DNA from: a virus
Taxonomy: Duplodnaviria; Heunggongvirae; Uroviricota; Caudoviricetes
Strand: one strand, 5' to 3'
Virus record (IMG/VR): IMGVR_UViG_2778261499_000009
Coordinates: 1-14,225 of that record
Length of the DNA stretch: 14,225 bases
A model generated the notes under the pieces. The model did not search any database, was not told the origin of the DNA, and saw only the letters and a list, made by a program, of their open reading frames with translations. Position numbers and translations under genes: made by a program. Below, piece after piece: positions 1-14,225 of this stretch; positions within the stretch are counted from its first letter, which is position 1, and each line of letters begins with the position of its first letter.

Positions 1-1248
1 ATGGCACTGAATATTCCATTCAGAAATGCGTACTATCGTTTTGCATCCAGTTACTCATTTCTCTTTTTTATTTCCTGGTCGCTGTGGTGGTCGTTATACG
101 CTATTTGGCTGAAAGGACATCTAGGATTAACAGGGACGGAATTAGGTACACTTTATTCGGTCAACCAGTTTACCAGCATTCTATTTATGATGTTCTACGG
201 CATCGTTCAGGATAAACTCGGTCTGAAGAAACCGCTCATCTGGTGTATGAGTTTCATTCTGGTCTTGACCGGACCGTTTATGATTTACGTTTATGAACCG
301 TTACTGCAAAGCAATTTTTCTGTAGGTCTAATTCTGGGGGCGCTCTTTTTTGGCCTGGGGTATCTGGCGGGATGCGGTTTGCTTGACAGCTTCACCGAAA
401 AAATGGCGCGAAATTTTCATTTCGAATATGGAACAGCGCGCGCCTGGGGATCTTTTGGCTATGCTATTGGCGCGTTCTTTGCTGGTATATTTTTTAGTAT
501 CAGTCCCCATATCAACTTCTGGTTGGTCTCGCTATTTGGCGCTGTATTTATGATGATCAACATGCGTTTTAAAGATAAGGATCACCAGTGCATAGCGGCG
601 GATGCGGGAGGGGTAAAAAAAGAGGATTTTATCGCAGTTTTCAAGGATCGAAACTTCTGGGTTTTTGTCATATTTATTGTGGGGACGTGGTCTTTCTATA
701 ACATTTTTGATCAACAACTCTTTCCTGTCTTTTATGCAGGTTTATTCGAATCACACGATGTAGGAACGCGCCTGTATGGTTATCTCAACTCATTCCAGGT
801 GGTACTCGAAGCGCTGTGCATGGCGATTATTCCTTTCTTTGTGAATCGGGTAGGGCCAAAAAATGCATTACTTATCGGTGTTGTGATTATGGCGTTGCGT
901 ATCCTTTCCTGCGTGCTGTTCGTTAACCCCTGGATTATTTCATTAGTGAAGCTGTTACATGCCATTGAGGTTCCACTTTGTGTCATATCCGTCTTCAAAT
1001 ACAGCGTGGCAAACTTTGATAAGCGCCTGTCGTCGACGATCTTTCTGATTGGTTTTCAAATTGCCAGTTCGCTTGGGATTGTGCTGCTTTCAACGCCGAC
1101 TGGGATACTCTTTGACCACGCAGGCTACCAGACAGTTTTCTTCGCAATTTCGGGTATTGTCTGCCTGATGTTGCTATTTGGCATTTTCTTCCTGAGTAAA
1201 AAACGCGAGCAAATAGTTATGGAAACGCCTGTACCTTCAGCAATATAG
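1..1248 (+). CDS. MFS transporter, LacY-like (oligosaccharide:H+ symporter family)
   Basis: 415-aa ORF, polytopic hydrophobic protein. Alignable by eye to E. coli LacY (e.g. DKLGLKKPLIW vs LacY DKLGLRKYLLW; NFHFEYGTARAWG vs NFEFGRARMFG; GPKNALLIG vs GGKNALLLAG). Not LacY itself. ATG at position 1, so the true start could lie upstream of the window. Confidence 0.8.
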   Translation: MALNIPFRNAYYRFASSYSFLFFISWSLWWSLYAIWLKGHLGLTGTELGTLYSVNQFTSILFMMFYGIVQDKLGLKKPLIWCMSFILVLTGPFMIYVYEPLLQSNFSVGLILGALFFGLGYLAGCGLLDSFTEKMARNFHFEYGTARAWGSFGYAIGAFFAGIFFSISPHINFWLVSLFGAVFMMINMRFKDKDHQCIAADAGGVKKEDFIAVFKDRNFWVFVIFIVGTWSFYNIFDQQLFPVFYAGLFESHDVGTRLYGYLNSFQVVLEALCMAIIPFFVNRVGPKNALLIGVVIMALRILSCVLFVNPWIISLVKLLHAIEVPLCVISVFKYSVANFDKRLSSTIFLIGFQIASSLGIVLLSTPTGILFDHAGYQTVFFAISGIVCLMLLFGIFFLSKKREQIVMETPVPSAI

Positions 1249-1327
1249 ACGTAAACTTTTTCCGGTTGTTGTCGATATCTCCATATCCCTCAACCGGAAA
1301 ATAATAATACAAAAATGCTTACCCCTG

Positions 1328-1597
1328 CTAATAATCACCTAATCCAAACGCCTCATTCATGTTCTGGTACAGTCGCTCAAATGTACTCCGGATACGCGGT
1401 TCGCTGATTTCCAGGACATTGTCGTCATTCAGCGACGTGTCCCGTGTATCACGGGCCTGCGAATTCATCAAGGAATGCATTGCAGAGTGAAGTATCGAGT
1501 CACGCCATATTTCGCTATCAGGATTCTGTATGATGGTTACATCGCCCGGCCAGGGCTGTTTAGTCATCAGCGCTTTCTGACAGTGCTGAGATTTCAA
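1328..1597 (-). CDS. hypothetical protein (weak call; possibly a remnant)
   Basis: 89-aa ORF between the transporter and the xis-like gene; no recognisable motifs. It sits where an integrase would be expected but is far too short and lacks tyrosine-recombinase motifs. Confidence 0.25.
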   Translation of the reverse strand: MKSQHCQKALMTKQPWPGDVTIIQNPDSEIWRDSILHSAMHSLMNSQARDTRDTSLNDDNVLEISEPRIRSTFERLYQNMNEAFGLGDY

Positions 1598-1776
1598 CCT
1601 GTTGCAGTAAAAATGAGTAGATATAGGGCAAGTGTGCTGCCAAACCCATCTTTTACGGGGTGAAGGTAGATTTGGTTTGAAGGGTATCTGGTGTCCCCTG
1701 CAGACATCTACTTCAAGCGGCAGGGGATTGATTGGAATGGTGTTTTTTAGATGTGAAAAATATTTTACCCGCTATT

Positions 1777-1977
1777 TTACCCATTGGCGCGGCTTAAGAG
1801 CTTATTTTTGAATTCACAATGGTCACGATATAACCATCTTGCTCGCCCGTGGATAACTTTGGCTTTTGGCAGGTCGCCGGACTTAATCCGGTCATAGATG
1901 AAGGTTTTACCGAAGCCAGTATCGGCCATGATGAATTTCAAATCAACCAGTGAATCAGGCTGTAGTTCGTGTTGCAT
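1777..1977 (-). CDS. AlpA/excisionase-like small DNA-binding protein (putative Xis)
   Basis: 66 aa; segment LKFIMADTGFGKTFIYDRIKSGDLPKAKVIHGRARW matches the AlpA/Xis-type winged-helix pattern (recalled family consensus). Confidence 0.55.
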   Translation of the reverse strand: MQHELQPDSLVDLKFIMADTGFGKTFIYDRIKSGDLPKAKVIHGRARWLYRDHCEFKNKLLSRANG

Positions 1978-2020
1978 GAGTGCTATCTCCGAATAGGGAA
2001 TCGAACCTGCAAATCAGGTA

Positions 2021-2043
2021 ATAAAAAACCGCCATCAGGCGGC
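2021..2043 (-). terminator. intrinsic terminator (minus strand) downstream of the 2086..2397 gene
   Basis: Minus-strand reading: stem CCGCC / loop TGAT / stem GGCGG followed by TTTTTTATT (plus strand shows AAAAAACCGCCATCAGGCGG). Confidence 0.5.
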
Positions 2044-2085
2044 TTGGTGTTCTTTCAGTTCTTCAATTCGAATATTGGTTACGTC

Positions 2086-2397
2086 TTATTCGATGCGCAC
2101 TCCTGGTATTTCGCCTTTTGATATTGCGAAGTCATAAATTTGCGCAGCACTATACCCATCTCGCATCCATGAATCTAATGCGCGAATAGCCTCGCTACGC
2201 TTTTTATCTTCTCTCTCATTTTTGATATCAACGAGGACATCAACGCAATTAAGGCAAATGTGGATTTTGTCCTTACATTCGATCATGGCGGCTTTACCAT
2301 GATTTCCGCCGCACAGTGAGCATAAATCTTCAGGGTCTGGCTGGTATTTCTGTAACGTTAGATGGTTGAATGTTGAACAGACCATAATCATCTCCAT
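2086..2397 (-). CDS. hypothetical Cys-rich small protein
   Basis: 103-aa ORF with CxxC-type motifs (CSLCGG ... CLNC). A hairpin lies 9 nt upstream of the annotated ATG, so the true start may be an internal Met (MIMVCS / MVCS). Confidence 0.4.
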   Translation of the reverse strand: MEMIMVCSTFNHLTLQKYQPDPEDLCSLCGGNHGKAAMIECKDKIHICLNCVDVLVDIKNEREDKKRSEAIRALDSWMRDGYSAAQIYDFAISKGEIPGVRIE

Positions 2398-2558
2398 AAA
2401 ACAAAACTCGCCGTAGCGAGTTCAGATAAAAGAAATCCCCGCGAGTGCGAGGATTGTTAGTTGCGCTCTGCTGCTGCCTTAGCCATTACCATATCCACCC
2501 AATTTCACCAGACATGATTCTCGCAATCACTATTATCACCAAAGTGATAATCACAACT

Positions 2559-3209
2559 TTAACTGGCGGCATCATTCACTCCCTGCGGCGGTTCTGGTAG
2601 CGGCATCCAGTGTGACGGTTTCCACGACGCACCAGGAATTATCCACCCATCATTAGCGTCAGGATGCCCGGGGATGTAAGTAGCCCATTTCATTCGCCAG
2701 TCACCTTTCCTGTCAAACTCCACGGCAACAAGTACGGCTGTTTTGGTATTCGGCATTCGCTCACTACAGCTTATCCAACCATCCGGAGTTACCGGAGAGT
2801 TGCCGGGTTCTTTAATGTGCAAACGAGGCTCACCATCTTTTGGTTCAGGCCACTGGCGCTCCATGTTGATCTTCAATTTATTTTCCATAGCAGCGGTAAT
2901 TTCAGCATCACTGATACCAGCACGGCGCTGTGCATCCCACAACAGGAACTGCATATCAGCCCACTCGCTGAGATCGTCAGGTTCGGCTGCGGCTTCCAGT
3001 GCCTCTTTTGAGAGGTGTTTCAGTGGACCAATGGGGCCAACGCAGCCAAATGTGGAGTCAGACCATTTGGCATGCTCGTGGCGAATCTGTTCGCGTTCCA
3101 GTGATGCCAGTGCAATTCGTGCCAGTTCCATTTGTTCGCCACGAGTAAGCCCGTTTTCAAGCGGATTTTTAATGAATAATTCGATACGTTCTTTGGTAAT
3201 AGTGGTCAT
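2559..3209 (-). CDS. DUF551-domain protein with N-terminal MazG-like (DUF550-type) region
   Basis: C-terminus DGWISCSERMP...VLVAVEF...SHWMPLPEPPQ matches the recalled DUF551 signature (WI..ER.P...VLV....HWMPLPEPP). The N-terminal half resembles prophage dATP/dGTP pyrophosphohydrolase-like domains (less certain). Confidence 0.5.
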   Translation of the reverse strand: MTTITKERIELFIKNPLENGLTRGEQMELARIALASLEREQIRHEHAKWSDSTFGCVGPIGPLKHLSKEALEAAAEPDDLSEWADMQFLLWDAQRRAGISDAEITAAMENKLKINMERQWPEPKDGEPRLHIKEPGNSPVTPDGWISCSERMPNTKTAVLVAVEFDRKGDWRMKWATYIPGHPDANDGWIIPGASWKPSHWMPLPEPPQGVNDAAS

Positions 3210-3211
3210 AG

Positions 3212-3403
3212 CTATTTCACCTTAATCTCAACATTTCGCAGCTTTAGCTCTACTGGCAGGTCTGACTTTCCTGTTAATGCTAATGCGAGATTTTCTGGGG
3301 TAATGAGAGCAGTTATTGCTTTCCCCATTGCCAGACGAATAATTATTCGTATTTCGCGATCGTCACATGCTCCTGGTCGAACGATTGATATTTGTCCGTC
3401 CAT
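3212..3403 (-). CDS. hypothetical small protein
   Basis: 63-aa ORF tightly packed between flanking genes (start 2 nt after the stop of the upstream gene); packing supports a real gene. Confidence 0.4.
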   Translation of the reverse strand: MDGQISIVRPGACDDREIRIIIRLAMGKAITALITPENLALALTGKSDLPVELKLRNVEIKVK

Positions 3404-3404
3404 C

Positions 3405-3812
3405 TCACTCTCCTTTGATGCGAATGCCTGCGGCGCGGATTGCAGCGATGACTTCAGAAACTTTGTATGCCATTACCGTTTGGTAATCATCGTGAAAATC
3501 TGTTCGATGAAGCATGCTGCTACGTTCCGGGAGCGATATTTCCCGCGCTTCCAGTTCTGCAATGCGCTTTTTTGCTGCTTCCAGTTCATCCAGTAATTCC
3601 AGCACGGTAGCCGGATTAGCCTTGGCAACAAAATCCCGGACTGGCTTACAATCAATCTCCGCAATGGGTTGATACGATGTGTAGCCATGCTGTCTTGTAT
3701 AACTACCGTGACGAATAACAAAAAAATCACCATTTATTTTTTTAGCCTGCCACTTATCTTCACCGGCTTTCTCTGCCGCTTCACGCAGTGCCTGATAGTC
3801 AATCTTGTTCAT
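3405..3812 (-). CDS. Ead/Ea22-like protein
   Basis: 135 aa; N-terminus MNKIDYQALREAAEKAG and PATVLELLDELEAAKKRIAELEAR resemble recalled Ead/Ea22-like lambdoid early-region proteins. Confidence 0.5.
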   Translation of the reverse strand: MNKIDYQALREAAEKAGEDKWQAKKINGDFFVIRHGSYTRQHGYTSYQPIAEIDCKPVRDFVAKANPATVLELLDELEAAKKRIAELEAREISLPERSSMLHRTDFHDDYQTVMAYKVSEVIAAIRAAGIRIKGE

Positions 3813-3813
3813 G

Positions 3814-4113
3814 TCACATCACCCTGAATCCGTTGCATTTACGTAAGAAATCGCAGATATAGCCCTTCATTTTTTCATGCCAATCTCGATCATTCCCATT
3901 GCACCAACCATCAGGTGGAGTCCAGTTTTCTATCAGAGCAGCCATTTTCTTTGCTTTCGCCGGAGTAGCTGTTGCGGTATCGCAGTAATGACGAGTTTCA
4001 ACCAACGCATCCATACCATCGATATCAAGTACGCAAAACCATGTGTGATTCGGCATTCCAACAGATGGTATTTGTTGCCCACGTCGACGTTTATCAATAA
4101 GACATACAGTCAT
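3814..4113 (-). CDS. hypothetical protein
   Basis: 99-aa ORF; its start overlaps the stop of the upstream gene (ATGA-type coupling at 4110-4113); several Cys/Trp residues. Confidence 0.45.
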   Translation of the reverse strand: MTVCLIDKRRRGQQIPSVGMPNHTWFCVLDIDGMDALVETRHYCDTATATPAKAKKMAALIENWTPPDGWCNGNDRDWHEKMKGYICDFLRKCNGFRVM

Positions 4114-4655
4114 GGTTCCACCTTCTCTATTTGCTTAAGACCGTCTCTCACTGCATTAAGTACGCGTTCCAGATACTGGTATTTCTGGTTTGGTGCCGTT
4201 GGCCAGTCGGCATACCATGGATCATCACCAAAGAGATTCAGCAGTTTGTTACCGACGCCGAAACAACAGCAGCTTTCTTTTACGTCATCGGCGTTTTCCG
4301 CCTCGTCCCACATTTCGCGAGCCTGTACCGCGTCGATTTCTCTCTCTCTTCGTAATTTTATGATTTCTGACTTCACGAAAAGCAGATTTGCATCGTTGTC
4401 ATCGTCGACCGTGCTTCGCAGTTGAGGGTCGAAATAGCCGATTAGATACTCGTTGCTGACCCGCTTAATGAACGTCTGCACATCATCACCGCCCATAGCA
4501 AACCAAGCCGCAGTCCACGCTTTTCCGTAGCAGGTGATGGTGATTCTTCCCTTACCAGGTTCGTAGTTTTCAATCATCACTCGAACCGGATCTAGTCGCT
4601 CTGCACCGGTTATAACGAATGACAACACATCAATCTTTTCAACCGTTACACTCAC
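4110..4655 (-). CDS. hypothetical protein (start refined to GTG with strong SD)
   Basis: The track ORF runs to 4676, but an AAGGAGG Shine-Dalgarno (plus 4662-4668) sits 6 nt upstream of an in-frame GTG at 4653-4655, which is the likelier start. Acidic central region. Confidence 0.5.
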
Positions 4656-4835
4656 TGGTTGCCTCCTTTGCGCCACATCGCATTCAGATATTTGTTGTCA
4701 TTAACAGAACCGAAACTATTTCTCTTAAGCAATTCCTCTCTCGATGGCATTGGCTTTACGCGTTGGCGAATAATCATTTCTGCCGGAAGAATGCCGGGAT
4801 TGTATGCAAGTCCTCTCATGGTAAATTCCTCTTTG

Positions 4836-5150
4836 TTAATTTATTCGTATGCCTGCTCTTTCTTCATCGAGTTTTTTTAGCTTGTATCGCATAGCTCTCA
4901 CTGAATAAATTGAGCGGCAGGTTGCAATTGCTATTTCTTCTGCGGAGAACTTACCGAAAAGTGATACTTCAGCTCTTGTCCATCGTCTTCCACGAAGTCG
5001 GCTAACAATGTCAGCGCCAATCCTTGTTGCTTTCGCCATAACTGCTTTTTCAGTCCTTTCCAGTTTTTCAGCGATAACTTCAACTGGCATTGTCGCCGCT
5101 ACTTCGCGCAAGAAATCGACTTCCCATTTCTCCCATGGAGTCTTTTTCAT
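4836..5150 (-). CDS. hypothetical protein
   Basis: 104-aa ORF with an internally duplicated W..E(V)..F/L motif ([13 protein letters not shown] / [13 protein letters not shown]), possibly a tandem helix-turn-helix-like fold. Confidence 0.45.
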
Positions 5151-5161
5151 AGGCGATACCG

Positions 5162-5650
5162 TTATTTGATAAGAAGTGAAGGTTTCCCAACTTTGAGTTG
5201 AGCGCCGGGGATATTTATTCCTGCTTTTAGTTGGTGTTTGATTGCCAGTTTGTCGGCTTTTATTGTTGTTTCAAACTCAACGTATTCAGGAGGAAGGGCG
5301 CTTGAGTCGATGATTTCTACAGTTTCTGACGGTTTGCGGATTGTTACCTGGTGAATACCTGCTCGAATCTTTTTCTTGCCAACCATTTCAAGCGATGACG
5401 CTATATACGCCATAATGCTGTCAATCTTATTTTGAATTACTGCGGCTCGCTCATTCAGTGACTTTGCCTCTTCCTTGAGGCGTTCAGCATAACCAGATTC
5501 ATTTTTAATAATGGCAAGAAGTTGCTCTATTTTATCGGTAAATTCTCCTTCCATGCCTTCTATTGTGTCAGCAATCATCTCTGGTTCTAAATCTGAATCC
5601 ATCAATTTTGCGTATTCATTGGCAATTTCATACAGTTTGCTCACTGGCAA
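5162..5650 (-). CDS. Siphovirus Gp157-family protein
   Basis: 162 aa; LYEIANEYAKLMDSD...TIEGMEGEFTDK...IKNESGYAERLKEEAKSLNER...KPSETVEIID...LKAGINIPGAQL fits the recalled Gp157-family pattern; lies immediately downstream of the RecT-family gene. Confidence 0.5.
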   Translation of the reverse strand: MPVSKLYEIANEYAKLMDSDLEPEMIADTIEGMEGEFTDKIEQLLAIIKNESGYAERLKEEAKSLNERAAVIQNKIDSIMAYIASSLEMVGKKKIRAGIHQVTIRKPSETVEIIDSSALPPEYVEFETTIKADKLAIKHQLKAGINIPGAQLKVGKPSLLIK

Positions 5651-6539
5651 CCTCCAGTTTCGCTTTGCATTCTGCGTAAATGGCTTGTACGTTCTGCTGC
5701 AATTTCATTCCAGATGTCAGGCGATATGCTTCTGCAAAATATCGCTTCAAATCATCCATGTTTTCTGCCTGAGCCATTTCATCGCAAAGAAGTTGTGCTT
5801 TATCCATTATTTCCTGCTGGCGTTTCCGTTCATCTTCGCGGATATCTTCCTCTGATTTGTGCGGCATAACTGGTTCAGTCCACACACCTTCTTCTTCGTT
5901 TAGTACGTGAATAGCACTATCAAGACGTGATGCCTTAGGCCAATACTTGCTTGCACGCTTTACGACCGTCTTTCGCGCCATCTCATTCCAGTGATTTACC
6001 CATGGTCCTTTATCGCTGAATGCTGCCTTGCTTGTTTTCCTTACAGCCTCAATTTCAGCCAGACTCATCTCTTCCGTTAGATAATCACCTGCTGGCGTCT
6101 TAACTGTGCAGTAAACGCCAACGATATCACCACGATCACCGAAGGCGTTGTATTTATGGGTTGGTGCTTTATCAAGCCCGTTTGACTCATAGGTATCGTT
6201 AGCATGAACAAGTTTTGCCTGACCCCATGAGATAACACCAGACTCCATTGCAATATGGAGCAATCCCATATAGCTGATATCAAGGCAAACCATGCCGTCT
6301 CGCGGAACTAGATAAGCAAGTTTGCTGGCCGGGTTTAAGGTGATGCCGATCGCCGCAACATTGATGATGGCGTTCTGTGCGCTGGTTGGGTTTGCCAGTG
6401 CTGTTTTAGCCAGGTAATCATTTTTCTGGAAATACTGAATTGCAAACTGGCTTTCCTTAGCCCATGTCACCGTCTGTTCAGTCAATGCTCCGCAGAATAA
6501 CTGCTCCTGCTGTTTAACGAATTCAACGATATTGCTCAT
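5628..6539 (-). CDS. recT: RecT-family single-strand annealing protein
   Basis: 303 aa; GPWVNHWNEMARKTVVKRASKYWP closely matches the recalled conserved RecT segment GPWVTHWEEMAKKTAIRRLFKYLP; start overlaps the stop of the upstream gene (ATGA). Confidence 0.75.
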   Translation of the reverse strand: MSNIVEFVKQQEQLFCGALTEQTVTWAKESQFAIQYFQKNDYLAKTALANPTSAQNAIINVAAIGITLNPASKLAYLVPRDGMVCLDISYMGLLHIAMESGVISWGQAKLVHANDTYESNGLDKAPTHKYNAFGDRGDIVGVYCTVKTPAGDYLTEEMSLAEIEAVRKTSKAAFSDKGPWVNHWNEMARKTVVKRASKYWPKASRLDSAIHVLNEEEGVWTEPVMPHKSEEDIREDERKRQQEIMDKAQLLCDEMAQAENMDDLKRYFAEAYRLTSGMKLQQNVQAIYAECKAKLEVASEQTV

Positions 6540-6847
6540 GCTGCTTCTCCATAAATGTGTCTGCGTTTGAATATTGCGAAGGCATATTCAGCCTTAACTC
6601 TTTCGGTTATTGCATCCCAGAACCATTCAGCGGCTTTTTCCTGATAGTTACAGTCATCATCTTCCAGCCAGTCGATAGCGTCCTTAGTGTGTTCATCTGG
6701 TTTATATGAGCGAAGCATTTCGCTTATTGGGTCGCAACGTTTGCAGAGACGATCAACTTCACTGTTGATTCGTTCGTAATCTTCATCAGTAAAACTTGCG
6801 ATTATTTGCGATATTTCACGCTTATCATTCAGAGTCAGAATCATCAT
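6536..6847 (-). CDS. hypothetical protein translationally coupled to recT
   Basis: 103-aa ORF; its stop overlaps the recT start; acidic, Trp-rich C-terminal half. Confidence 0.5.
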   Translation of the reverse strand: MMILTLNDKREISQIIASFTDEDYERINSEVDRLCKRCDPISEMLRSYKPDEHTKDAIDWLEDDDCNYQEKAAEWFWDAITERVKAEYAFAIFKRRHIYGEAA

Positions 6848-7065
6848 CTTTCTCCTGTTCTTTGTGCTGATTGAGCATTTTGTTCATCTGACGAATGAAT
6901 TCTTCGTCTGACCAGTTATCTGTAAAACTCATTTCCTGCGATACCACGGAAGGTTGATAGCTGATTTCATCGCTTTATTTGCTTCAAGCCACATTTTTGA
7001 ATCACCAATAAATCGGGCTATTACTGCTTTGTTCTGTGCAGCACGAAGCATCTGGTGATTAATGG

Positions 7066-7200
7066 CTATTTCATTGCGCATAACGCCTCCAGTTGTTTCT
7101 TTGCTGCTCTGATTAATTGTTTAACTCGGCGTGATAATTCAGATTCGTGCGGGTAGAAAGCGGACATGACGCCGCTACCCGCGAGCTGAAAGTGCATCAT
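7066..7200 (-). CDS. cIII: cIII-like peptide (putative FtsH inhibitor)
   Basis: The track ORF starts at 7251, but AAGGAG (minus strand) lies 6 nt upstream of the internal ATG at 7198-7200. The resulting 44-aa peptide MMHFQLAGSGVMSAFYPHESELSRRVKQLIRAAKKQLEAL parallels lambda cIII MQYAIAGWPVAGCPSESLLERITRKLRDGWKRLIDIL (recalled). Confidence 0.45.
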   Translation of the reverse strand: MMHFQLAGSGVMSAFYPHESELSRRVKQLIRAAKKQLEALCAMK

Positions 7201-7275
7201 GGGTAACTCCTTATATTTGATTGCATAACGAAAATGCCTCTCGTGAAGCATTATTGGTATGCGGTAAAGCCGCGC

Positions 7276-7644
7276 TCAGGCGGCTTTGATAGTCATATCA
7301 TCTGAATCAAATATTCCAGATGTGTCGATATCGGTAATTCTTATTCCTTCGCTACCATCCATTGGAGGCCATCCTTCCTGACCATTTCCATCATTCCAGT
7401 CGAACTCACACACAACACCATATGCATTTAAGTCGCTTGAAATTGCTATAAGCAGAGCATGTTGCGCCAGCATGATTAATACAGCATTTAATACAGAGCC
7501 GTGTTTATTGAGTCGGTATTCAGAGTCTGACCAGAAATTATTAATCTGGTGAAGTTTTTCCTCTGTCATTACGTCATGGTCGATTTCAATTTCTATTGAT
7601 GCTTTCCAGTCGTAATCAATGATGTATTTTTTGATGTTTGACAC
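7276..7644 (-). CDS. hypothetical acidic protein (early-left operon)
   Basis: 122-aa ORF with GTG start (AGGA about 9 nt upstream); strongly acidic (many D/E, C-terminus ...ITDIDTSGIFDSDDMTIKAA); occupies the ral/ea10-like position. Confidence 0.5.
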   Translation of the reverse strand: MSNIKKYIIDYDWKASIEIEIDHDVMTEEKLHQINNFWSDSEYRLNKHGSVLNAVLIMLAQHALLIAISSDLNAYGVVCEFDWNDGNGQEGWPPMDGSEGIRITDIDTSGIFDSDDMTIKAA

Positions 7645-7662
7645 CTATTCATATCCTCATAG

Positions 7663-7690
7663 ATAAAAAATCGCCCTCACACTGGAGGGC
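7663..7690 (-). terminator. intrinsic terminator in the pL operon (tL-like)
   Basis: Minus-strand reading: stem GCCCTC / loop CAGTGT / stem GAGGGC followed by GATTTTTTAT. Confidence 0.55.
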
Positions 7691-7813
7691 AAAGAAGATT
7701 TCCAATAATCAGAACAAGTCGGCTCCTGTTTAGTTACGAGCGACATTGCTCCGTGTATTCACTCGTTGGAATAAATACACAGTGCAGTGTTTATTAGTAT
7801 GCCTGTCTTTTAA

Positions 7814-8711
<898 letters not shown>

Positions 8712-8869
8712 CTGGATTCTCTTGTCAGTTAGCTTTGGTGGTGTGTGTGAGTCGTAGTCCTGAACGAAAACACCCCACGATTGGCTCATTTGCAGCTAAT
8801 CCGGATTCGCACTTCCGGCCAATGCTTCGTTTCGTATCACACACCCCAAAGCCTTCTGCTTTGAATGCT

Positions 8870-8900
8870 GCCCTTCTTCAGGGCTTAATTTTTAAGAGCA
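8870..8900 (-). promoter_or_regulatory. nutL (boxA + boxB)
   Basis: Minus-strand reading TGCTCTTAA-AAATTAA-GCCCTGAAGAAGGGC; boxB is a perfect hairpin identical to recalled lambda nutL boxB; boxA as CGCTCTTAA in my recollection of lambda. Confidence 0.8.
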
Positions 8901-8939
8901 TCACCTTCATGTGGGTTAGTGCGTCCTGCTGGTGTGTTT

Positions 8940-8968
8940 AGTATCACCGCTAGTGGTATTTGTGTCAA
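8940..8968 (-). promoter_or_regulatory. pL promoter
   Basis: Minus strand -35 TTGACA (plus 8963-8968), 17-nt spacer, -10 GATACT (plus 8940-8945); overlaps oL1/oL2 as in lambda. Confidence 0.75.
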
Positions 8969-9002
8969 CACCGCCAGAGATAATTTATCACCGCAGATGG
9001 TT
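8942..9002. promoter_or_regulatory. oL1-oL2-oL3 cI operator sites
   Basis: TATCACCGCTAGTGGTA (8942-8958), CAACACCGCCAGAGATA (8966-8982), TATCACCGCAGATGGTT (8986-9002); match recalled lambda oL sites, with one difference in oL1. Confidence 0.85.
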
Positions 9003-9157
9003 ATCTGTATGTTTTTTATATAGATTTATTTTTTGCAGGGTTGTGTGGCTTGGGAGGTGATCGAGAGATCAGAATTGCGTTGTTTAGTGAGTTGCACCTA
9101 TTAATTTTAAAATAAATACAATTGGTTATGTGTTTTTAGGTGGGGCGATCGTGAGGC

Positions 9158-9183
9158 AAAGAAAACCCGGCTCGGTGGCCGGG
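9158..9183 (-). terminator. intrinsic terminator ending the cI-region leftward transcript (timm-like)
   Basis: Minus-strand reading: stem CCCGGC / loop CACCGA / stem GCCGGG followed by TTTTCTTT, starting 10 nt after the stop of the 9193..10050 gene. Confidence 0.6.
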
Positions 9184-9192
9184 TTGATGGGA

Positions 9193-10050
9193 TTATCGTT
9201 TATTTCTTTGATGTTTCTTTGCAGACTCAGCTTGAGTGTTTCCATACCTGCGTTTACCGCTATTGTTTTTTCCCCTAGGCTTGCCTTTTTTTCGATCTTC
9301 CCACCAGTCAGGTGCCGGGTCTGGCTCAACATGTAAAGCATCGGCAAGTCCTGATATCAAGCTGTATGACTGAACTCCATCAATGTGCTCTGACAGTGAT
9401 GGGGTAACATTCTGTCTTAGTGGATCAAGAATAAAATCAATACCTTTAATTCTGGCGTGTTTGGCGGCAGGCACAAAGTCTGAGTCCCCAGCAACAAGGA
9501 CAATTACATCAACAAGTTTTTCATAAGCTAAAGTCGTGATATCCATCCCTAGCTTGATATCAACTTGTTTTTGTTTGATGTCATAGTAAAAATCATCATT
9601 TGTCAGTTCATCCCATTTTTTCGTTCCTTTCATCAGAGCATCAAGGGAGAATGTAGTTAGTTGCCATCGCTTATTATCAACAAGATTCCCTAATCTTAAG
9701 GCTGTTTTTCGAGTTTTTCTTAACTCTTCATGCAGCTCCGTTCTCAGAATATATGATTTTTCGAGTTTGAAATTCTTGCGACCAGGCGTCTTATTGCCAG
9801 GCTCAGGAAGTGGAAGGCGTGTTTGAATGTCGAGTGGTGGACAGTCATAGAAGTAAATTCTATAAAGCTCAAGCGGTTCCCTACGTTCTTGTGATTGACG
9901 TTTTCCATTAAGATGGGAAAGAACCATTGACCATATTACTTTCATTATGCATTGCGCAGTCAGTTCATGCTCGGCGAAGTGTTTACGATGCGTAGCATGA
10001 ACACGCTGCATGAAAAAACCCGCATCAATTAAAATTGCTGCTTTCTTCAT
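9193..10050 (-). CDS. NYN/LabA-like (PIN-fold) nuclease-domain protein with Lys/Arg-rich C-terminal tail, in the rexAB position
   Basis: 285 aa; N-terminal MKKAAILIDAGFF and downstream VDVIVLVAGDSDFVPAAKHARIKGIDFI match recalled NYN/LabA hallmark motifs; tail RKKGKPRGKNNSGKRRYGNTQAESAKKHQRNKR is highly basic. Lies between cI and the timm-like terminator, where lambda carries rexA-rexB. No resemblance to RexA or RexB. Confidence 0.65.
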   Translation of the reverse strand: MKKAAILIDAGFFMQRVHATHRKHFAEHELTAQCIMKVIWSMVLSHLNGKRQSQERREPLELYRIYFYDCPPLDIQTRLPLPEPGNKTPGRKNFKLEKSYILRTELHEELRKTRKTALRLGNLVDNKRWQLTTFSLDALMKGTKKWDELTNDDFYYDIKQKQVDIKLGMDITTLAYEKLVDVIVLVAGDSDFVPAAKHARIKGIDFILDPLRQNVTPSLSEHIDGVQSYSLISGLADALHVEPDPAPDWWEDRKKGKPRGKNNSGKRRYGNTQAESAKKHQRNKR

Positions 10051-10060
10051 AAGAGTCCCA

Positions 10061-10120
10061 AAAAAATAGCCCAGAGCCGTTATGCAGATATTAACAATTG
10101 TCTGCGAACGGGGCTGGGCT
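10061..10120 (-). terminator. large imperfect hairpin followed by a U-run, immediately upstream of the NYN gene start (terminator/attenuator-like)
   Basis: Outer stem AGCCCAGAGCCGTT (10068-10081) pairs with AACGGGGCTGGGCT (10107-10120) at 12 of 14 positions; inner stem GCAGA/TCTGC; on the minus strand it is followed by ATTTTTTT and then the ATG 13 nt later. Confidence 0.4.
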
Positions 10121-10130
10121 TGGTTTAATT

Positions 10131-10159
10131 AATCTATGCCAAGTTGACTGTGCCGTCAA
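10131..10159 (-). promoter_or_regulatory. candidate sigma70 promoter reading toward the NYN gene, embedded in a GTTGAC-N6-GTCAAC palindrome
   Basis: Minus strand TTGACG, 17-nt spacer, TAGATT; perfect inverted repeat GTTGAC TGTGCC GTCAAC at 10143-10160. Confidence 0.35.
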
Positions 10160-10177
10160 CATAAAACTTACTTCCTA

Positions 10178-10894
<717 letters not shown>

Positions 10895-10901
10895 TTAAAT
10901 C

Positions 10902-10967
10902 TATCACCGCAAGGGATAAATATCTAACACCGTGCGTGTTGACTATTTTACCTCTGGCGGTGATAAT
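10902..10967. promoter_or_regulatory. oR3-oR2-oR1 with pRM and pR
   Basis: TATCACCGCAAGGGATA (10902-10918), TAACACCGTGCGTGTTG (10925-10941), TACCTCTGGCGGTGATA (10949-10965); pR -35 TTGACT (10939-10944) and -10 GATAAT (10962-10967); SD TAAGGAGG before cro. Confidence 0.9.
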
Positions 10968-10982
10968 AGTTGCATGTACTAA

Positions 10983-11192
<210 letters not shown>

Positions 11193-11199
11193 ATAACCC

Positions 11200-11231
11200 C
11201 GCTCTTACACATTCCAGCCCTGAAAAAGGGC
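11200..11231 (+). promoter_or_regulatory. nutR (boxA CGCTCTTAC, boxB GCCCTGAAAAAGGGC)
   Basis: boxA at 11200-11208; boxB perfect hairpin at 11217-11231; matches recalled lambda nutR. Confidence 0.8.
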
Positions 11232-11255
11232 ATCAAATTAAACCACACCTATGGT

Positions 11256-11290
11256 GTATGCATTTATTTGCATACATTCAATCAATTGTT
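11256..11290 (+). terminator. tR1-like terminator region between cro and cII
   Basis: Hairpin GTATGCA / loop TTTATT / TGCATAC (11256-11275) followed by an AT-rich tract; position equivalent to lambda tR1 (Rho-dependent in lambda). Confidence 0.5.
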
Positions 11291-11300
11291 ATCTAAGGAA

Positions 11301-11333
11301 ATACTTACATATGGTTCGTGCAAACAAACGCAA
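11301..11333 (-). promoter_or_regulatory. pRE with cII-binding TTGC-N6-TTGC repeat
   Basis: Minus strand TTGCGTTTGTTTGC (plus 11320-11333) overlapping the cII start; -10-like AAGTAT (plus 11301-11306). Confidence 0.6.
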
Positions 11334-11607
11334 CGAGGCTCTACGAATCGAGAGTGCGTTGCTTAACAAAATCGCAATGCTTGGAACTGAGAAGACAGCG
11401 GAAGCTGTGGGAGTTGATAAGTCGCAGATCAGCAGGTGGAAGAGGGACTGGATTCCAAAGTTCTCAATGCTGCTTGCTGTTCTTGAGTGGGGTGTCGTCG
11501 ACGACGACATGGCTCGATTGGCACGACAAGTTGCTTCGATTCTCACCAATAAAAAACGCCCGGTGTGCAAGACCGAGCGTTCTGATCAAATACAAATGGA
11601 ATTTTAA
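11311..11607 (+). CDS. cII: cII transcriptional activator (lambda type)
   Basis: From the ATG at 11311 (SD TAAGGAA upstream): MVRANKRNEALRIESALLNKIAMLGTEKTAEAVGVDKSQISRWKRDWIPKFSMLLAVLEWGVVDDDMARLARQV... matches recalled lambda cII; the C-terminal few residues differ. The track ORF begins 60 nt upstream. Confidence 0.95.
   Translation: MVRANKRNEALRIESALLNKIAMLGTEKTAEAVGVDKSQISRWKRDWIPKFSMLLAVLEWGVVDDDMARLARQVASILTNKKRPVCKTERSDQIQMEF
11548..11579 (-). terminator. oop-like antisense terminator overlapping the cII 3' end
   Basis: Minus-strand reading: stem CGCTCGG / 9-nt loop / CCGGGCG (one mismatch) followed by TTTTTTATT; position as for lambda oop RNA. Partner promoter not identified. Confidence 0.35.
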
Positions 11608-11629
11608 CAACATCCAACGAGGTAATTAT

Positions 11630-11902
11630 ATGCGAAACAAAGGCTTTAATCCACCTGATACACACAAAGAAGCTAAGCGTTTGCGCTTCCTTCGTTCCAT
11701 TGATGAAAGAACTCAAATCTCTTTTGTGAAAGTTGCCAGAACTGAGCTTCTGAAGGCTGAGGCGAGGGCGTTGCTCCCGTCTCTACCAAAAGAGGAGGGA
11801 TATACGTTCATTCCAAACGCATTTCTGGAAAAGCTTCTCAAAGAAGACATATCCGTAAGTCAGTTTAACGATGTTCTTAAGGTCTTTCGTCAAGGCAGGT
11901 AG
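11630..11902 (+). CDS. hypothetical protein inserted between cII and the replication initiator
   Basis: 90 aa from the ATG at 11630 with GAGG 9 nt upstream (MRNKGFNPPDTHKEAKRLRFL...); the longer track ORF (11318) overlaps cII out of frame and is not credible; the stop is followed 2 nt later by the next start. Confidence 0.55.
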   Translation: MRNKGFNPPDTHKEAKRLRFLRSIDERTQISFVKVARTELLKAEARALLPSLPKEEGYTFIPNAFLEKLLKEDISVSQFNDVLKVFRQGR

Positions 11903-11904
11903 TT

Positions 11905-12852
11905 ATGAGCAATACAGCAAAAATCTACGATTTCAGCGCCGCACACGAGCGCAGGAGCAACAGGATGGAGAACCAGAAAACTGGTTACATTCCGTTGTAC
12001 CGGAGCATTCTGAAACAGTCATGGGCGAAAGATGTTTATCTTCGCACCCTGTGGGAAAACCTTCTCCTGAATGCCGCCAGAAAGCCATACAAAGCGAATT
12101 TCAAAGGTCATGAATGGCATCTGCAACCCGGTCAACTGGTTGTGACAGCAGCTGATTTAGGTCTTCAGTTATGCGACAGACATGGCAAGCCAGCAAGCCG
12201 TGATCAGGTTGAGCGGATGCTTCAGGTTTTTGTGAAAGAGGGGATGATCTCCATTGATGGAGAGAAGCAAAAAGGTCGTGTGATAACCATCACAAATTAC
12301 CATGAATATGCTCAAAAAATGGACAATTTACCCGCACATGAAGCCGCACAAACAACCGCACATGATGCAGCACATGACGAAGACAGTAATGGCGCGGCTT
12401 TCAGAGCACATGCCGCACATGAAAGCGCACATGAAGCCGCACAAACAACCGCACATCATGAACAAGAAGGTATTAACAAGAATATAAATAATACCCCCCT
12501 ACCCCCCAATGGGGGAGGCGATGGGCAGGTTAAACCTGAACGTCGCAAGGCAGAACGAATCGACTACGAATCCTTCCTGAACGCCTACAACACCGAAGTC
12601 GGTGACAGACTTCCACACGCTGTTGCGGTCAACGAGAAACGAAAACGCCGCCTGAAGAAAATCATCCCGCAACTGAAAACGCCAAACGTGGACGGTTTCA
12701 GAGCGTATGTCAGGGCGTTTGTGCATCAGGCCAAGCCGTTTTACTTCGGAGACAACGACACGGGCTGGACAGCTGATTTTGATTACCTGCTGAGGGAAGA
12801 TTCGTTAACTGGAGTACGGGAAGGGAAGTTTGCAGACAGGGGGATTGCATGA
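11905..12852 (+). CDS. phage replication initiator (O-like / P22 gene 18-like) containing the origin
   Basis: 315 aa; N-terminus [10 protein letters not shown] resembles lambda O MTNTAKILNF; position immediately before the helicase; a central low-complexity AHE/AHD-repeat linker is encoded by the iteron DNA; stop overlaps the helicase start (ATGA). Confidence 0.7.
12330..12520. repeat. ori-type iteron cluster + AT-rich tract + C5/G5 palindrome inside the initiator gene
   Basis: GCACATG-containing units recur at least six times; an exact 30-bp direct repeat CGCACATGAAGCCGCACAAACAACCGCACAT occurs at 12333-12362 and 12427-12456; followed by AT-rich GGTATTAACAAGAATATAAATAATAC and CCCCCCTACCCCCCAATGGGGGAGG. 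Confidence 0.65.
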
Positions 12853-14225
12853 GACAGGATATCGAAGCGAGCGTTATCGGTGGCCTGCTGATTGGTGGAT
12901 TAACACCAACCGCCAGCGACGTTCTGGCAACGCTGGAGCCGGAAGCGTTTTCAATTCCGCTCTACCGGAAAGCCTTCGAGGTTATCCGCAAGCAGGCGAG
13001 AAACAGAAACCTAATCGATGCGCTGATGGTTGCCGAGGCGTGCGGAGAGGAGCATTTCACGTCAATCCTGATGACCAGCAAAAACTGCCCGAGTGCCGCA
13101 AACCTGAAGGGATATGCCGGAATGGTCGCGGATAACTATCACCGCCGTCTGGTGCTGGAAATCATGGATGAAATGCGTGAACCAATTCAGAGCGGAACCA
13201 TCGACGCATCGAGTCAGGCGATGGATGAGCTTGTAAAGCGTCTTTCAGCCATCAGAAAGCCCCGTGACGAGGTTAAACCGGTACGGTTAGGGGAAATCAT
13301 CACCGACTACACTGACACGCTTGACAGGCGTCTGAGGAACGGAGAAGAGTCAGATACCCTGAAGACCGGAATCGAAGAACTTGATGCCATCACCGGAGGG
13401 ATGAACGCGGAAGACCTGGTGATAATCGCTGCTCGTCCTGGTATGGGGAAAACCGAACTGGCGCTGAAGATTGCCGAAGGCGTTGCAAGCCGCGTTATTC
13501 CTGGTTCTGACGTCCGGCGCGGAGTGTTGATTTTCTCGATGGAAATGAGCGCATTGCAGATCGCAGAGCGAAGCATTGCCAACGCCGGGAGGATGTCGGT
13601 TAGCGTACTGCGAAATCCTGCATCGATGGATGACGAGGGCTGGGCACGTGTTGCTAACGGAATGAGTCAGCTTGCAGATTTGGATGTATGGGTGGTCGAT
13701 GCCTCGCGGTTATCGGTCGAAGAAATACGCTCAATCGCAGAACGGCACAAACAGGAAAATCCAAACCTGTCACTCATCATGGCGGATTATCTTGGCCTGA
13801 TTGAGAAGCCGAAAGCAGACCGCAACGACCTCGCAATTGCTCACATCTCAGGAAGCCTTAAGGCGATGGCGAAAGACCTGAAAACTCCAGTTATCTCCCT
13901 GAGTCAGCTTTCACGCGATGTTGAGAAGCGACCAAACAAACGCCCGACAAACGCAGATTTGCGTGATTCAGGAAGCATTGAACAGGACGCAGACTCAATC
14001 ATCATGCTCTATCGGGAAGCGGTATATGACGAGAACAGTAGCGCCGCGCCATTTGCTGAAATCATCGTGACGAAAAACCGTTTTGGCTCACTTGGTACGG
14101 TTTACCAGCGGTTCTGTAACGGACACTTTGTTGCATGTGACCAGGATGAAGCCAGACAGATTTGCACAGCATCAAATGCACCCGCTGCACGTGGCAGACG
14201 ATATGCACAAGGGGCTGACGTATGA
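12849..14225 (+). CDS. DnaB-family replicative helicase (P22 gene 12-like)
   Basis: 458 aa; Walker [17 protein letters not shown]; DnaB-like C-terminal RecA-fold motifs ([19 protein letters not shown]); SD AGGGGG 5 nt upstream; stop codon is the last 3 nt of the window. Confidence 0.9.

Follow-up and report, generated by a model that had tools for sequence, protein, structure and literature searches.

In type III toxin-antitoxin (TA) systems such as ToxIN, CptIN and TenpIN, one promoter is followed by an RNA gene, a Rho-independent terminator and a gene for an endoribonuclease, in this order; owing to the terminator, RNA is made at a high ratio to protein, and the systems are found on mobile elements, where they act as abortive-infection modules. 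In phage lambda the genes rexA and rexB lie between cI and oL/pL as an accessory module of the lysogen and are transcribed together with cI from pRM, uninterrupted by a terminator. Autoregulation of RNases via a hairpin in the 5' leader is known from the rne 5' untranslated region (UTR) and the rnc leader of Escherichia coli as well as from the eukaryotic Regnase-1, which cleaves a stem-loop of its own mRNA. Phage morons are autonomous transcription units between backbone genes, located at differing positions among prophages, and lambdoid prophages of enterohaemorrhagic E. coli (EHEC) O157:H7 encode the small RNAs (sRNAs) AsxR and AgvB, which are about 50-60 nucleotides (nt) long and end in a terminator hairpin (PMC4104026). 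In the present study these systems are compared with a 53-nt hairpin located between the repressor gene cI and a NYN-domain nuclease gene in the virus record IMGVR_UViG_2778261499_000009 (Caudoviricetes), positions 1 to 14,225, the whole of which is referred to as the window. Comparison of related loci identifies this element as a member of an undescribed, widely distributed leader RNA associated with NYN genes, which probably keeps the nuclease in check.

The hairpin and its promoter occupy the gap of 127 bp that extends from the cI stop codon (10180-10178) to the NYN ATG at 10050, and the features of the gap and of the gene behind it are as follows:

10143..10160, no strand assigned: perfect palindrome GTTGAC-N6-GTCAAC, overlapping the -35 hexamer, possible operator (sole match in the window, 0.03 expected by chance)
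10154..10159, minus strand: -35 hexamer TTGACG of the cassette promoter (sequence reading and consensus promoter scan)
10131..10136, minus strand: -10 hexamer TAGATT after a 17-nt spacer, with a predicted start at about 10124 (sequence reading and consensus scan)
10068..10120, minus strand: hairpin of 53 nt with three helices (fold energy, covariance model, compensatory changes)
10120-10114 with 10074-10068, minus strand: helix P1, AGCCCAG/CUGGGCU, separated from P2 by a CC/CU mismatch
10111-10107 with 10081-10077, minus strand: helix P2, CCGUU/AACGG
10105-10101 with 10088-10084, minus strand: helix P3, GCAGA/UCUGC
10100-10089, minus strand: apical loop of 12 nt, CAAUUGUUAAUA
10088..10096, minus strand: junction of loop and P3, TGTTAATAT, which holds the invariant loop UUA and reads also as an extended -10-like element
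10060..10067, minus strand: A + U7 tail (U7 = 10066-10060), U-tract of an intrinsic terminator (sequence reading)
10056..10059, minus strand: weak Shine-Dalgarno-like GGGA abutting the U-tract (similar GGA, GGAG or AAGGA at the same place in most related loci)
9193..10050, minus strand: gene of the NYN-domain (PIN-like) nuclease, 285 amino acids (aa) (Pfam NYN, E = 6.8e-9)

A preliminary description of the gap had reported its length, a minus-strand promoter-like element TTGACG-17-TAGATT, a -35 hexamer inside a perfect GTTGAC-N6-GTCAAC palindrome and a large hairpin with 12 of 14 outer pairs and an inner stem of 5 bp. All of these are found in place, the promoter hexamers at 10159-10154 and 10136-10131 (also in the consensus scan), the palindrome at 10160-10143 and the hairpin at 10120-10068. 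The fold prediction proposed there as a check gave a minimum free energy (MFE) of -25.9 kcal/mol (z = -3.68), and none of 200 shuffled sequences folded as well. Two details had to be corrected: the supposed run of eight U is an A followed by seven consecutive U, and 9 nt instead of 13 lie between the last U and the ATG. With a GC-rich stem followed by a U-tract on the transcribed strand, the window hairpin displays the sequence features of an intrinsic terminator. The promoter match alone was not above chance (three sites found by the scan versus 4.5 +/- 2.3 expected), and the promoter is judged real because the position of its -35 hexamer is conserved across homologous loci, not because of the motif match. 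The start of the loop, CAAUUG (window 10093-10100, minus strand), is self-complementary and could permit loop-loop dimerisation of two RNAs, which is probably incidental, as Photorhabdus and the Proteus phage introduced below have CAAUAG and the motif is not conserved.

Loci with NYN genes were collected from 185,000 species genomes and from viral contigs. Window-like hairpins directly 5' of NYN on the same strand were designated type B, defined by helices of 7, 5-6 and 5 bp, a loop of 12-13 nt with UUA, and a U-tract, and the window element possesses each of these characters. The first clue was provided by the P22-like Proteus phage Brookers, whose NYN protein is 74% and whose repressor is 62% identical to that of the window; when a query of 151 nt spanning the gap was compared with this phage by blastn, the hairpin was the sole part detected (93.5% identity), with one C-G pair of P3 replaced by U-A in a compensatory manner. 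Type B hairpins were found in the Enterobacterales (Tatumella, Yersinia, Photorhabdus, Xenorhabdus, Ewingella, Proteus) and beyond them in Pseudomonas, Acinetobacter, Pasteurellaceae, Marinobacterium and one Thiohalomonadales genome. With a covariance model based on 23 distinct sequences there was exactly one match per locus in 49 loci, with 51-82 bits, always directly 5' of NYN and on the same strand, the match in the window extending from 10060 to 10120 (80.7 bits, E = 4e-17); apart from weak terminator-like matches, nothing further was detected by the model in the type B loci. Among the viral contigs, 38 of 40 exact copies of the RNA are followed by NYN. The identical sequence is present in 56 phage records and in 275 of 5426 E. 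coli genomes, a largely clonal set. The latter correspond to about 5% of the complete genomes of the species, with 290 places in total and a median of one copy per genome, and no RefSeq annotation lies under the element in any of the 275.

The secondary structure is supported by a covariation test, carried out on a MAFFT alignment that was made from sequence alone and not fitted to the structure. Standard pairs are formed in 91.3% of the cells of the 18 proposed pairs, compared with 26-43% when the partners were slid by 1-3 columns; compensatory double changes occur in 17 of the 18 pairs versus 1-7 in the slid controls, and the observed covariation score was reached in none of 500 column shuffles. 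Across 33 distinct loci the hairpin measures 52-54 nt with folding energies of -18 to -28 kcal/mol, and 6-8 U lie within 9 nt 3' of the stem in every one of them. The start codon follows 15-41 nt after the hairpin end in the 29 loci in which it was placed correctly (the start-codon script gave no start in two loci and an evident mis-call of 4-6 nt in two more), a distance too short for a second promoter there. Within the loop UUA is invariant or nearly so among the 23 distinct sequences, its TA being present in all 23 and the longer TAnnnT in 15.

Changes of the hairpin in Enterobacterales are mostly paired substitutions in P1 and P3, with Ewingella-type copies varying in P2 and loop too. Four enteric loci (L098, L101, L102 and L134) possess hairpins 100% identical to that of the window, while identity drops to 73-76% in their NYN coding sequences, to 45-48% at third codon positions and to about 60% in the 80 nt further upstream. 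An internal control is offered by the terminator behind NYN, which in the same loci drifts or is swapped for unrelated hairpins, as is expected of a generic terminator and unlike the hairpin upstream of the gene. The latter appears to be a terminator whose whole body, and not the stem alone, is under selection.

In 31 of the 33 distinct loci TTGAC is located 37-42 nt (Pasteurellaceae 45-47 nt) before the hairpin, and about 17 nt past it a -10-like hexamer, commonly TAnnnT, was seen in most loci (by eye, untallied). From this fixed offset a transcription start 3-6 nt before P1 is predicted, which corresponds to about 10124 in the window and agrees with the start near 10124 that had been proposed before. 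Since the offset is conserved, the promoter would be part of the cassette, and its transcripts would run straight into the hairpin. Perfect TTGAC-N(4-9)-GTCAA repeats with unrelated spacer sequences recur in about eight of the 33 loci, including L146 and L148 of Pseudomonas, and imperfect TTGAC/GTCAA repeats were noticed by eye in about six further ones. Binding of the palindrome by a regulator, named earlier as a point to check, is thus partly backed by this recurrence, but the repeat is not universal; an operator is plausible. In many enteric cassettes (L091, L098, L101, L102, L105, L134) a second TTGAC(A/T) was observed exactly 30 bp upstream of the TTGAC of the -35 hexamer, at about -68/-69 from the hairpin. 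It may represent an additional promoter or a regulator's second site, and it has no counterpart in the window, where the 3' end of cI occupies this position.

The window represents a lambda-immunity prophage, the DNA of which is almost identical to lambda through cI to its stop. Homology to lambda is lost completely from about 10175, resumes at the stem of the tIMM terminator (~9186) and continues through oL/pL. Exactly in place of rexA-rexB, a cassette of about 1 kb is thus found that comprises promoter, hairpin/terminator, NYN gene (285-aa open reading frame, ORF) and a closing terminator. The landmarks around it are:

10178..10891, minus strand: lambda-type cI repressor gene, 237 aa (ORF list; DNA near-identical to lambda cI through the stop), upstream neighbour outside the cassette
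9164..9185, minus strand: downstream terminator with lambda tIMM-type stem, which closes the cassette (terminator scan; lambda homology restarts exactly here)
8940..8968, minus strand: pL promoter TTGACA-17-GATACT with the oL region (near-identical to lambda oL/pL), backbone landmark downstream of the cassette

Upstream neighbours of the unit of hairpin and NYN vary among loci and include an S24/HTH repressor in some of them, ninG, a DNA methylase and an ABC ATPase. In Stx2a phages the unit follows a DUF3024 gene, itself located after an unrelated repressor, and a relic of about 20 nt of the lambda cI 3' end, GAAGAGACGTTTGGGTGA, is retained between the DUF3024 gene and the cassette (L205:1735-1760), which indicates that the unit, once located behind a lambda cI gene, was transferred as a block to another immunity region. 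Because the unit is also found where no repressor gene precedes it, it belongs to the NYN cassette and not to cI, and insulation of the nuclease gene from pRM read-through, one of the purposes considered in the preliminary description, is not supported as its main one. A further copy was observed in the thrW-adjacent CP-933H remnant of E. coli O157:H7 (L163:3122-3651), where promoter and RNA are 100% identical and precede a truncated NYN ORF of 129 aa; this copy adjoins lambda-type cI, cro and cII. In Pseudomonas yamanorum a C4 antisense RNA with its a1/b1 target, as in P1/P7-type immunity, is located about 2.5 kb downstream of the NYN cassette (L010:5009-5208, minus strand) and indicates a prophage context there too.

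The protein encoded behind the hairpin belongs to a large family with more than 7000 homologues at E <= 1e-10, listed as PHROG 5783 with 'unknown function'. By its structure model (mean pLDDT 86), for which the NYN domain of MARF1 was the best match in the Protein Data Bank (PDB), it is a PIN-like RNase fold, and aspartate is invariant at D9, D69, D164, D170, D189 and D191 among 31 NYN homologues.

Related versions of the hairpin were found before NYN in at least five phyla. A different-looking hairpin with U-run, designated type A, precedes NYN in Acidobacteriota, Betaproteobacteria, other Gammaproteobacteria, Elusimicrobiota and Bacteroidota. It was recorded some 40-100 nt before the NYN start, which lies at 2501, in L031, L039, L047, L061, L066, L069, L072, L078-L081 and L083 and, among Bacteroidales, in L037, L050, L054, L071, L077 and L153-L162. 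Type A also directly follows a promoter, which is of the TAnnTTTG type in Bacteroidales. Its structure was assigned by hand, then counted and modelled. The internal loop (5' side CAGUA(C/A)G, 3' side CCGA(N)CC) is nearly invariant and resembles a bulged-G/loop E motif (AGUA/GAN). On an unrefined alignment the two outer helices are paired to 81.5%, compared with 24-66% in slid controls, and seven pairs show double changes, whereas RNAalifold predicted only three pairs on the unrefined MAFFT alignment of type A. With the type A model 17 non-Bacteroidales loci were found at E <= 2e-8 and about 11 Bacteroidales loci more weakly (E 1e-5 to 0.2), all of them directly upstream of NYN. Cross-detection between the two types was marginal (L015 at E = 0.013, the window at E = 0.56, Bacteroidales with the type B model at E 0.1-1), and a common ancestry of types A and B is possible. 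The chromosomal NYN clade of the Rhodanobacteraceae (L018-L060: Rhodanobacter, Dyella, Frateuria) is mostly devoid of the element with U-run. In many of these loci a TAGAAT/TAAAAT -10-like box together with a GC-rich hairpin (e.g., GGCCGG-CUAUGG-GCCGG) was observed about 20-120 nt upstream of NYN, and the majority carry a CAUAAGGAUUUCCUAUG-like ribosome-binding region; this leader may be a third type.

Searches for a known identity of the element remained negative. No match was obtained with Rfam 15 at the gathering threshold in the window or at the site upstream of NYN in 16 related loci, and permissive E-value scans of the element in two loci gave chance-level matches only (E > 2); no Rfam 15 family matches either type A or type B. 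Literature text searches with the sequence and for NYN in connection with RNA, prophage defence or type III TA found no description of the element, nor did text searches on CP-933H sRNA and O157 locus tags, and the Pas sRNA preprint makes no mention of repressor or NYN contexts.

Several candidate identities were rejected on the evidence of the loci themselves. A tandem-repeat RNA antitoxin was dismissed, as Tandem Repeats Finder returned a blank in 9900-10300 and a single hairpin is present per locus, and a REP/MITE-like repetitive palindromic element is at odds with the median of one copy per E. coli genome and one match per locus. The sole ATG-started frame across the element (10161) precedes the -35 hexamer, and the ATG is absent elsewhere, e.g., in L004, which speaks against a leader peptide. 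Pairing of the loop with the translation start of NYN would involve about 6 bp via the palindromic CAAUUG, is absent in the Pseudomonas copies and was judged by eye to be chance. An antitermination RNA of the nut/boxB or HK022 put type appears to fit neither the loop nor the architecture, and a U-tract follows here. A riboswitch or an attenuator of the antiterminator type was rejected as well, the predicted start lying about 4 nt before P1 and the conserved structure being the terminator hairpin itself.

How does the cassette compare with the described systems? As in type III TA, a terminator stands between RNA and ORF under one upstream promoter, and this order is conserved. The cassette is nevertheless not a member of the type III/ToxIN family: tandem RNA repeats of 34-45 nt there contrast with one hairpin of 53 nt here, a separate terminator there with an RNA that would itself be the terminator here, and the ToxN/AbiQ fold there with an NYN/PIN-like fold here, as indicated by Pfam and the MARF1 match. 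With lambda cI-rexA-rexB it shares the slot and orientation between cI and oL/pL and the same end terminator tIMM, and like rexAB it would be a lysogen-expressed accessory module expected to exclude other phages; in contrast to rexAB, promoter and terminator hairpin set it apart from cI, and the NYN protein is unrelated to RexA or RexB. By analogy with the RNase leaders, the conserved stem-loop in its own mRNA could serve NYN as a recognition site for negative feedback, but those of rne, rnc and Regnase-1 are not terminators and yield no separate small RNA. In classic morons, which the cassette resembles as an autonomous unit, promoter and gene are not separated by a terminator, and a conserved structured RNA is absent. 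AsxR and AgvB, similar in length, terminator hairpin and host, differ in sequence (no Rfam match was found here) and in position, as they occupy the PR' moron site and not the immunity region, and they possess a variable single-stranded 5' seed, whereas the cassette RNA is almost entirely helical.

The best overall explanation, to which we incline tentatively and at somewhat less than an even level of confidence, is that a terminated RNA is made in excess, NYN is expressed by read-through, and the RNA is recognised sequence-specifically, likely by NYN. A sigma-70 promoter (10159-10131) would start transcription about 4 nt before the three-helix hairpin of 53 nt, whose GC-rich basal stem and U7 would act as an intrinsic terminator. 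Most transcripts, including read-through from pRM/cI, would end at about 10060-10064, and those from the cassette promoter would yield an abundant RNA of about 62 nt. As a GC-rich stem with U7 precedes the ORF and no second promoter follows, NYN is expected to depend on read-through transcripts alone, with a weak ribosome-binding site right after the U-tract, and for the same anatomical reasons the terminated RNA should be the main product, so that the level of the nuclease would be low relative to the RNA. Termination would require far less conservation than is seen in loop, internal loops and helix lengths. This suggests a sequence-specific reader, and NYN is favoured for this role as the sole constant companion of the RNA. 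Two forms of this explanation can be envisaged: the RNA in excess could be an inhibitory or antidote-like partner that holds the nuclease in check, or NYN could recognise the hairpin on its own mRNA leader and limit its own synthesis by autoregulatory cleavage. By position and by analogy with rexAB, the cassette may be a prophage exclusion or abortive-infection module. The more specific view, that the hairpin RNA is a dedicated partner of NYN (antidote or cofactor) and that both constitute a so far undescribed class of toxin-antitoxin or abortive-infection systems, made of RNA and protein, with type III-like logic and a single RNA as its own terminator, is a possibility that we regard as rather doubtful. 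From the earlier proposal of separate, attenuated control or a small RNA, the dedicated promoter, the terminator-type hairpin and the implied RNA of about 60 nt, conserved in 33 loci, can be retained, whereas conditional attenuation appears unlikely, as a start at the foot of the stem (~4 nt) leaves no room for an antiterminator and an alternative fold cannot make termination conditional.

Several observations weigh against the explanation favoured here. Start site, termination and small RNA are all predictions, binding of the RNA by NYN and toxicity of NYN are putative, and with PADLOC the NYN protein gave weak matches alone (E = 2e-4 and 1.4e-3). RNA antitoxins such as ToxI and CptI are tandem repeats, and a single hairpin is present here. 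The 100% identity of the hairpin among enteric phages could partly reflect recent recombination instead of selection, and a -10 signal at the level of DNA, rather than an RNA contact, could underlie the invariance of TA in the loop. Moreover, copies exist without an intact NYN gene: at L198:3565-3625 an identical hairpin of 53 nt without NYN is located 10 nt upstream of tRNA-Arg(UCU) in a phage late region, with a 207-aa ORF without family match on one side and holin/lysozyme on the other, and the homology to the window is confined to the hairpin, both flanks being unrelated; in L183 the RNA precedes an internally deleted NYN, and in the CP-933H remnant of O157:H7 it is kept before the truncated one. 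These three copies imply that the hairpin can persist, at least temporarily, as a plain terminator.

The orphan hairpin of L198, outside the NYN context, also fits a purely cis-acting attenuator or leader, which would limit transcription of NYN and, by shaping the 5' end of read-through transcripts, affect their stability and their access to ribosomes, with the short RNA as a by-product that NYN does not recognise. The universal order of promoter, terminator and ORF, the universal U-tract and a ribosome-binding site abutting it would be accounted for in this way. However, a GC-rich stem and a U-tract suffice for a terminator, so that the constant three-helix design of 52-54 nt with its invariant loop would be left unexplained, as would complete hairpin identity where synonymous sites are near saturation; in addition, the downstream terminator drifts freely in the same loci, and a start about 4 nt before the stem allows no alternative fold for conditional attenuation. 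On balance we consider a leader of this kind unlikely, if still worth serious attention. At the far end stands an ordinary terminator next to a chance promoter, conserved merely by recent horizontal spread or by recombination at a mosaic junction. It could draw on the largely clonal distribution of the identical sequence over 56 phage records and 275 E. coli genomes and on the relic of the cI 3' end in Stx2a phages, which shows that recombination took place at the junction. Yet it hardly agrees with the numerous compensatory changes among gammaproteobacterial orders in which NYN shares no more than 43-59% identity with the protein of the window, with the conserved promoter offset, or with a median of one copy per genome, which is not that of a repeat element, and is therefore regarded as very improbable.

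Two further alternatives assign the loop another function, and both appear improbable. If the RNA were a trans-acting prophage sRNA of the Hfq type, the apical loop would pair with host or phage mRNAs and NYN would merely share the promoter. A stand-alone promoter and terminator yielding an RNA of about 62 nt, as well as an A/U-rich and partly invariant loop, would suit this assumption, and sRNAs of 51-60 nt are encoded by EHEC lambdoid prophages (PMC4104026). Of the features of Hfq-dependent sRNAs, the terminator hairpin and the U-tail are present, and the 12-nt loop is the sole unpaired stretch. On the other hand, about 4 nt only are single-stranded at the 5' end, neither AsxR/AgvB nor other Rfam families are matched, the known EHEC anti-sRNAs reside at the PR' moron site and not here, and a strict one-to-one linkage with NYN across distant taxa is more in keeping with a partner of NYN than with a regulator whose targets are taxon-specific. 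Alternatively, the loop could be a DNA signal, the extended -10-like TGTTAATAT (10096-10088) firing an NYN mRNA from the 3' arm (~10080) that escapes termination, while the upstream promoter makes the terminated RNA only. Such an mRNA would be devoid of the 5' arm and therefore could not form the terminator, which would explain expression of NYN behind a strong one. TA at -12/-11 is present in all 23 sequences and TAnnnT in 15 of them, among which are all those from Enterobacterales, Acinetobacter and Pasteurellaceae, but the T at -7 is absent in most Pseudomonas copies and in L014, L015, L017 and L144, no -35 is recognisable, TG occurs in some copies only, and conserved helix lengths and internal loops would be left unexplained. 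The TGTTAATAT junction may be either an RNA contact or an internal promoter; the latter is seen as a secondary possibility, which could coexist with recognition of a terminated RNA by NYN.

Even on the most conservative reading, the hairpin would readily qualify as a new Rfam family. It points to an unannotated class of structured RNA with strong covariation support that is tied one-to-one to a large NYN family of unknown function. The cassette is carried in prophage immunity regions, the home of exclusion and defence genes, and by Shiga-toxin phages. If the RNA indeed controls or neutralises the nuclease, the cassette would be a new RNA-controlled nuclease module, which fills the rexAB slot in lambda-type prophages and is present in Stx2a phages and in the CP-933H remnant of O157:H7, and it would also offer a tangible lead to the modules that have taken the place of Rex in many lambdoid phages.

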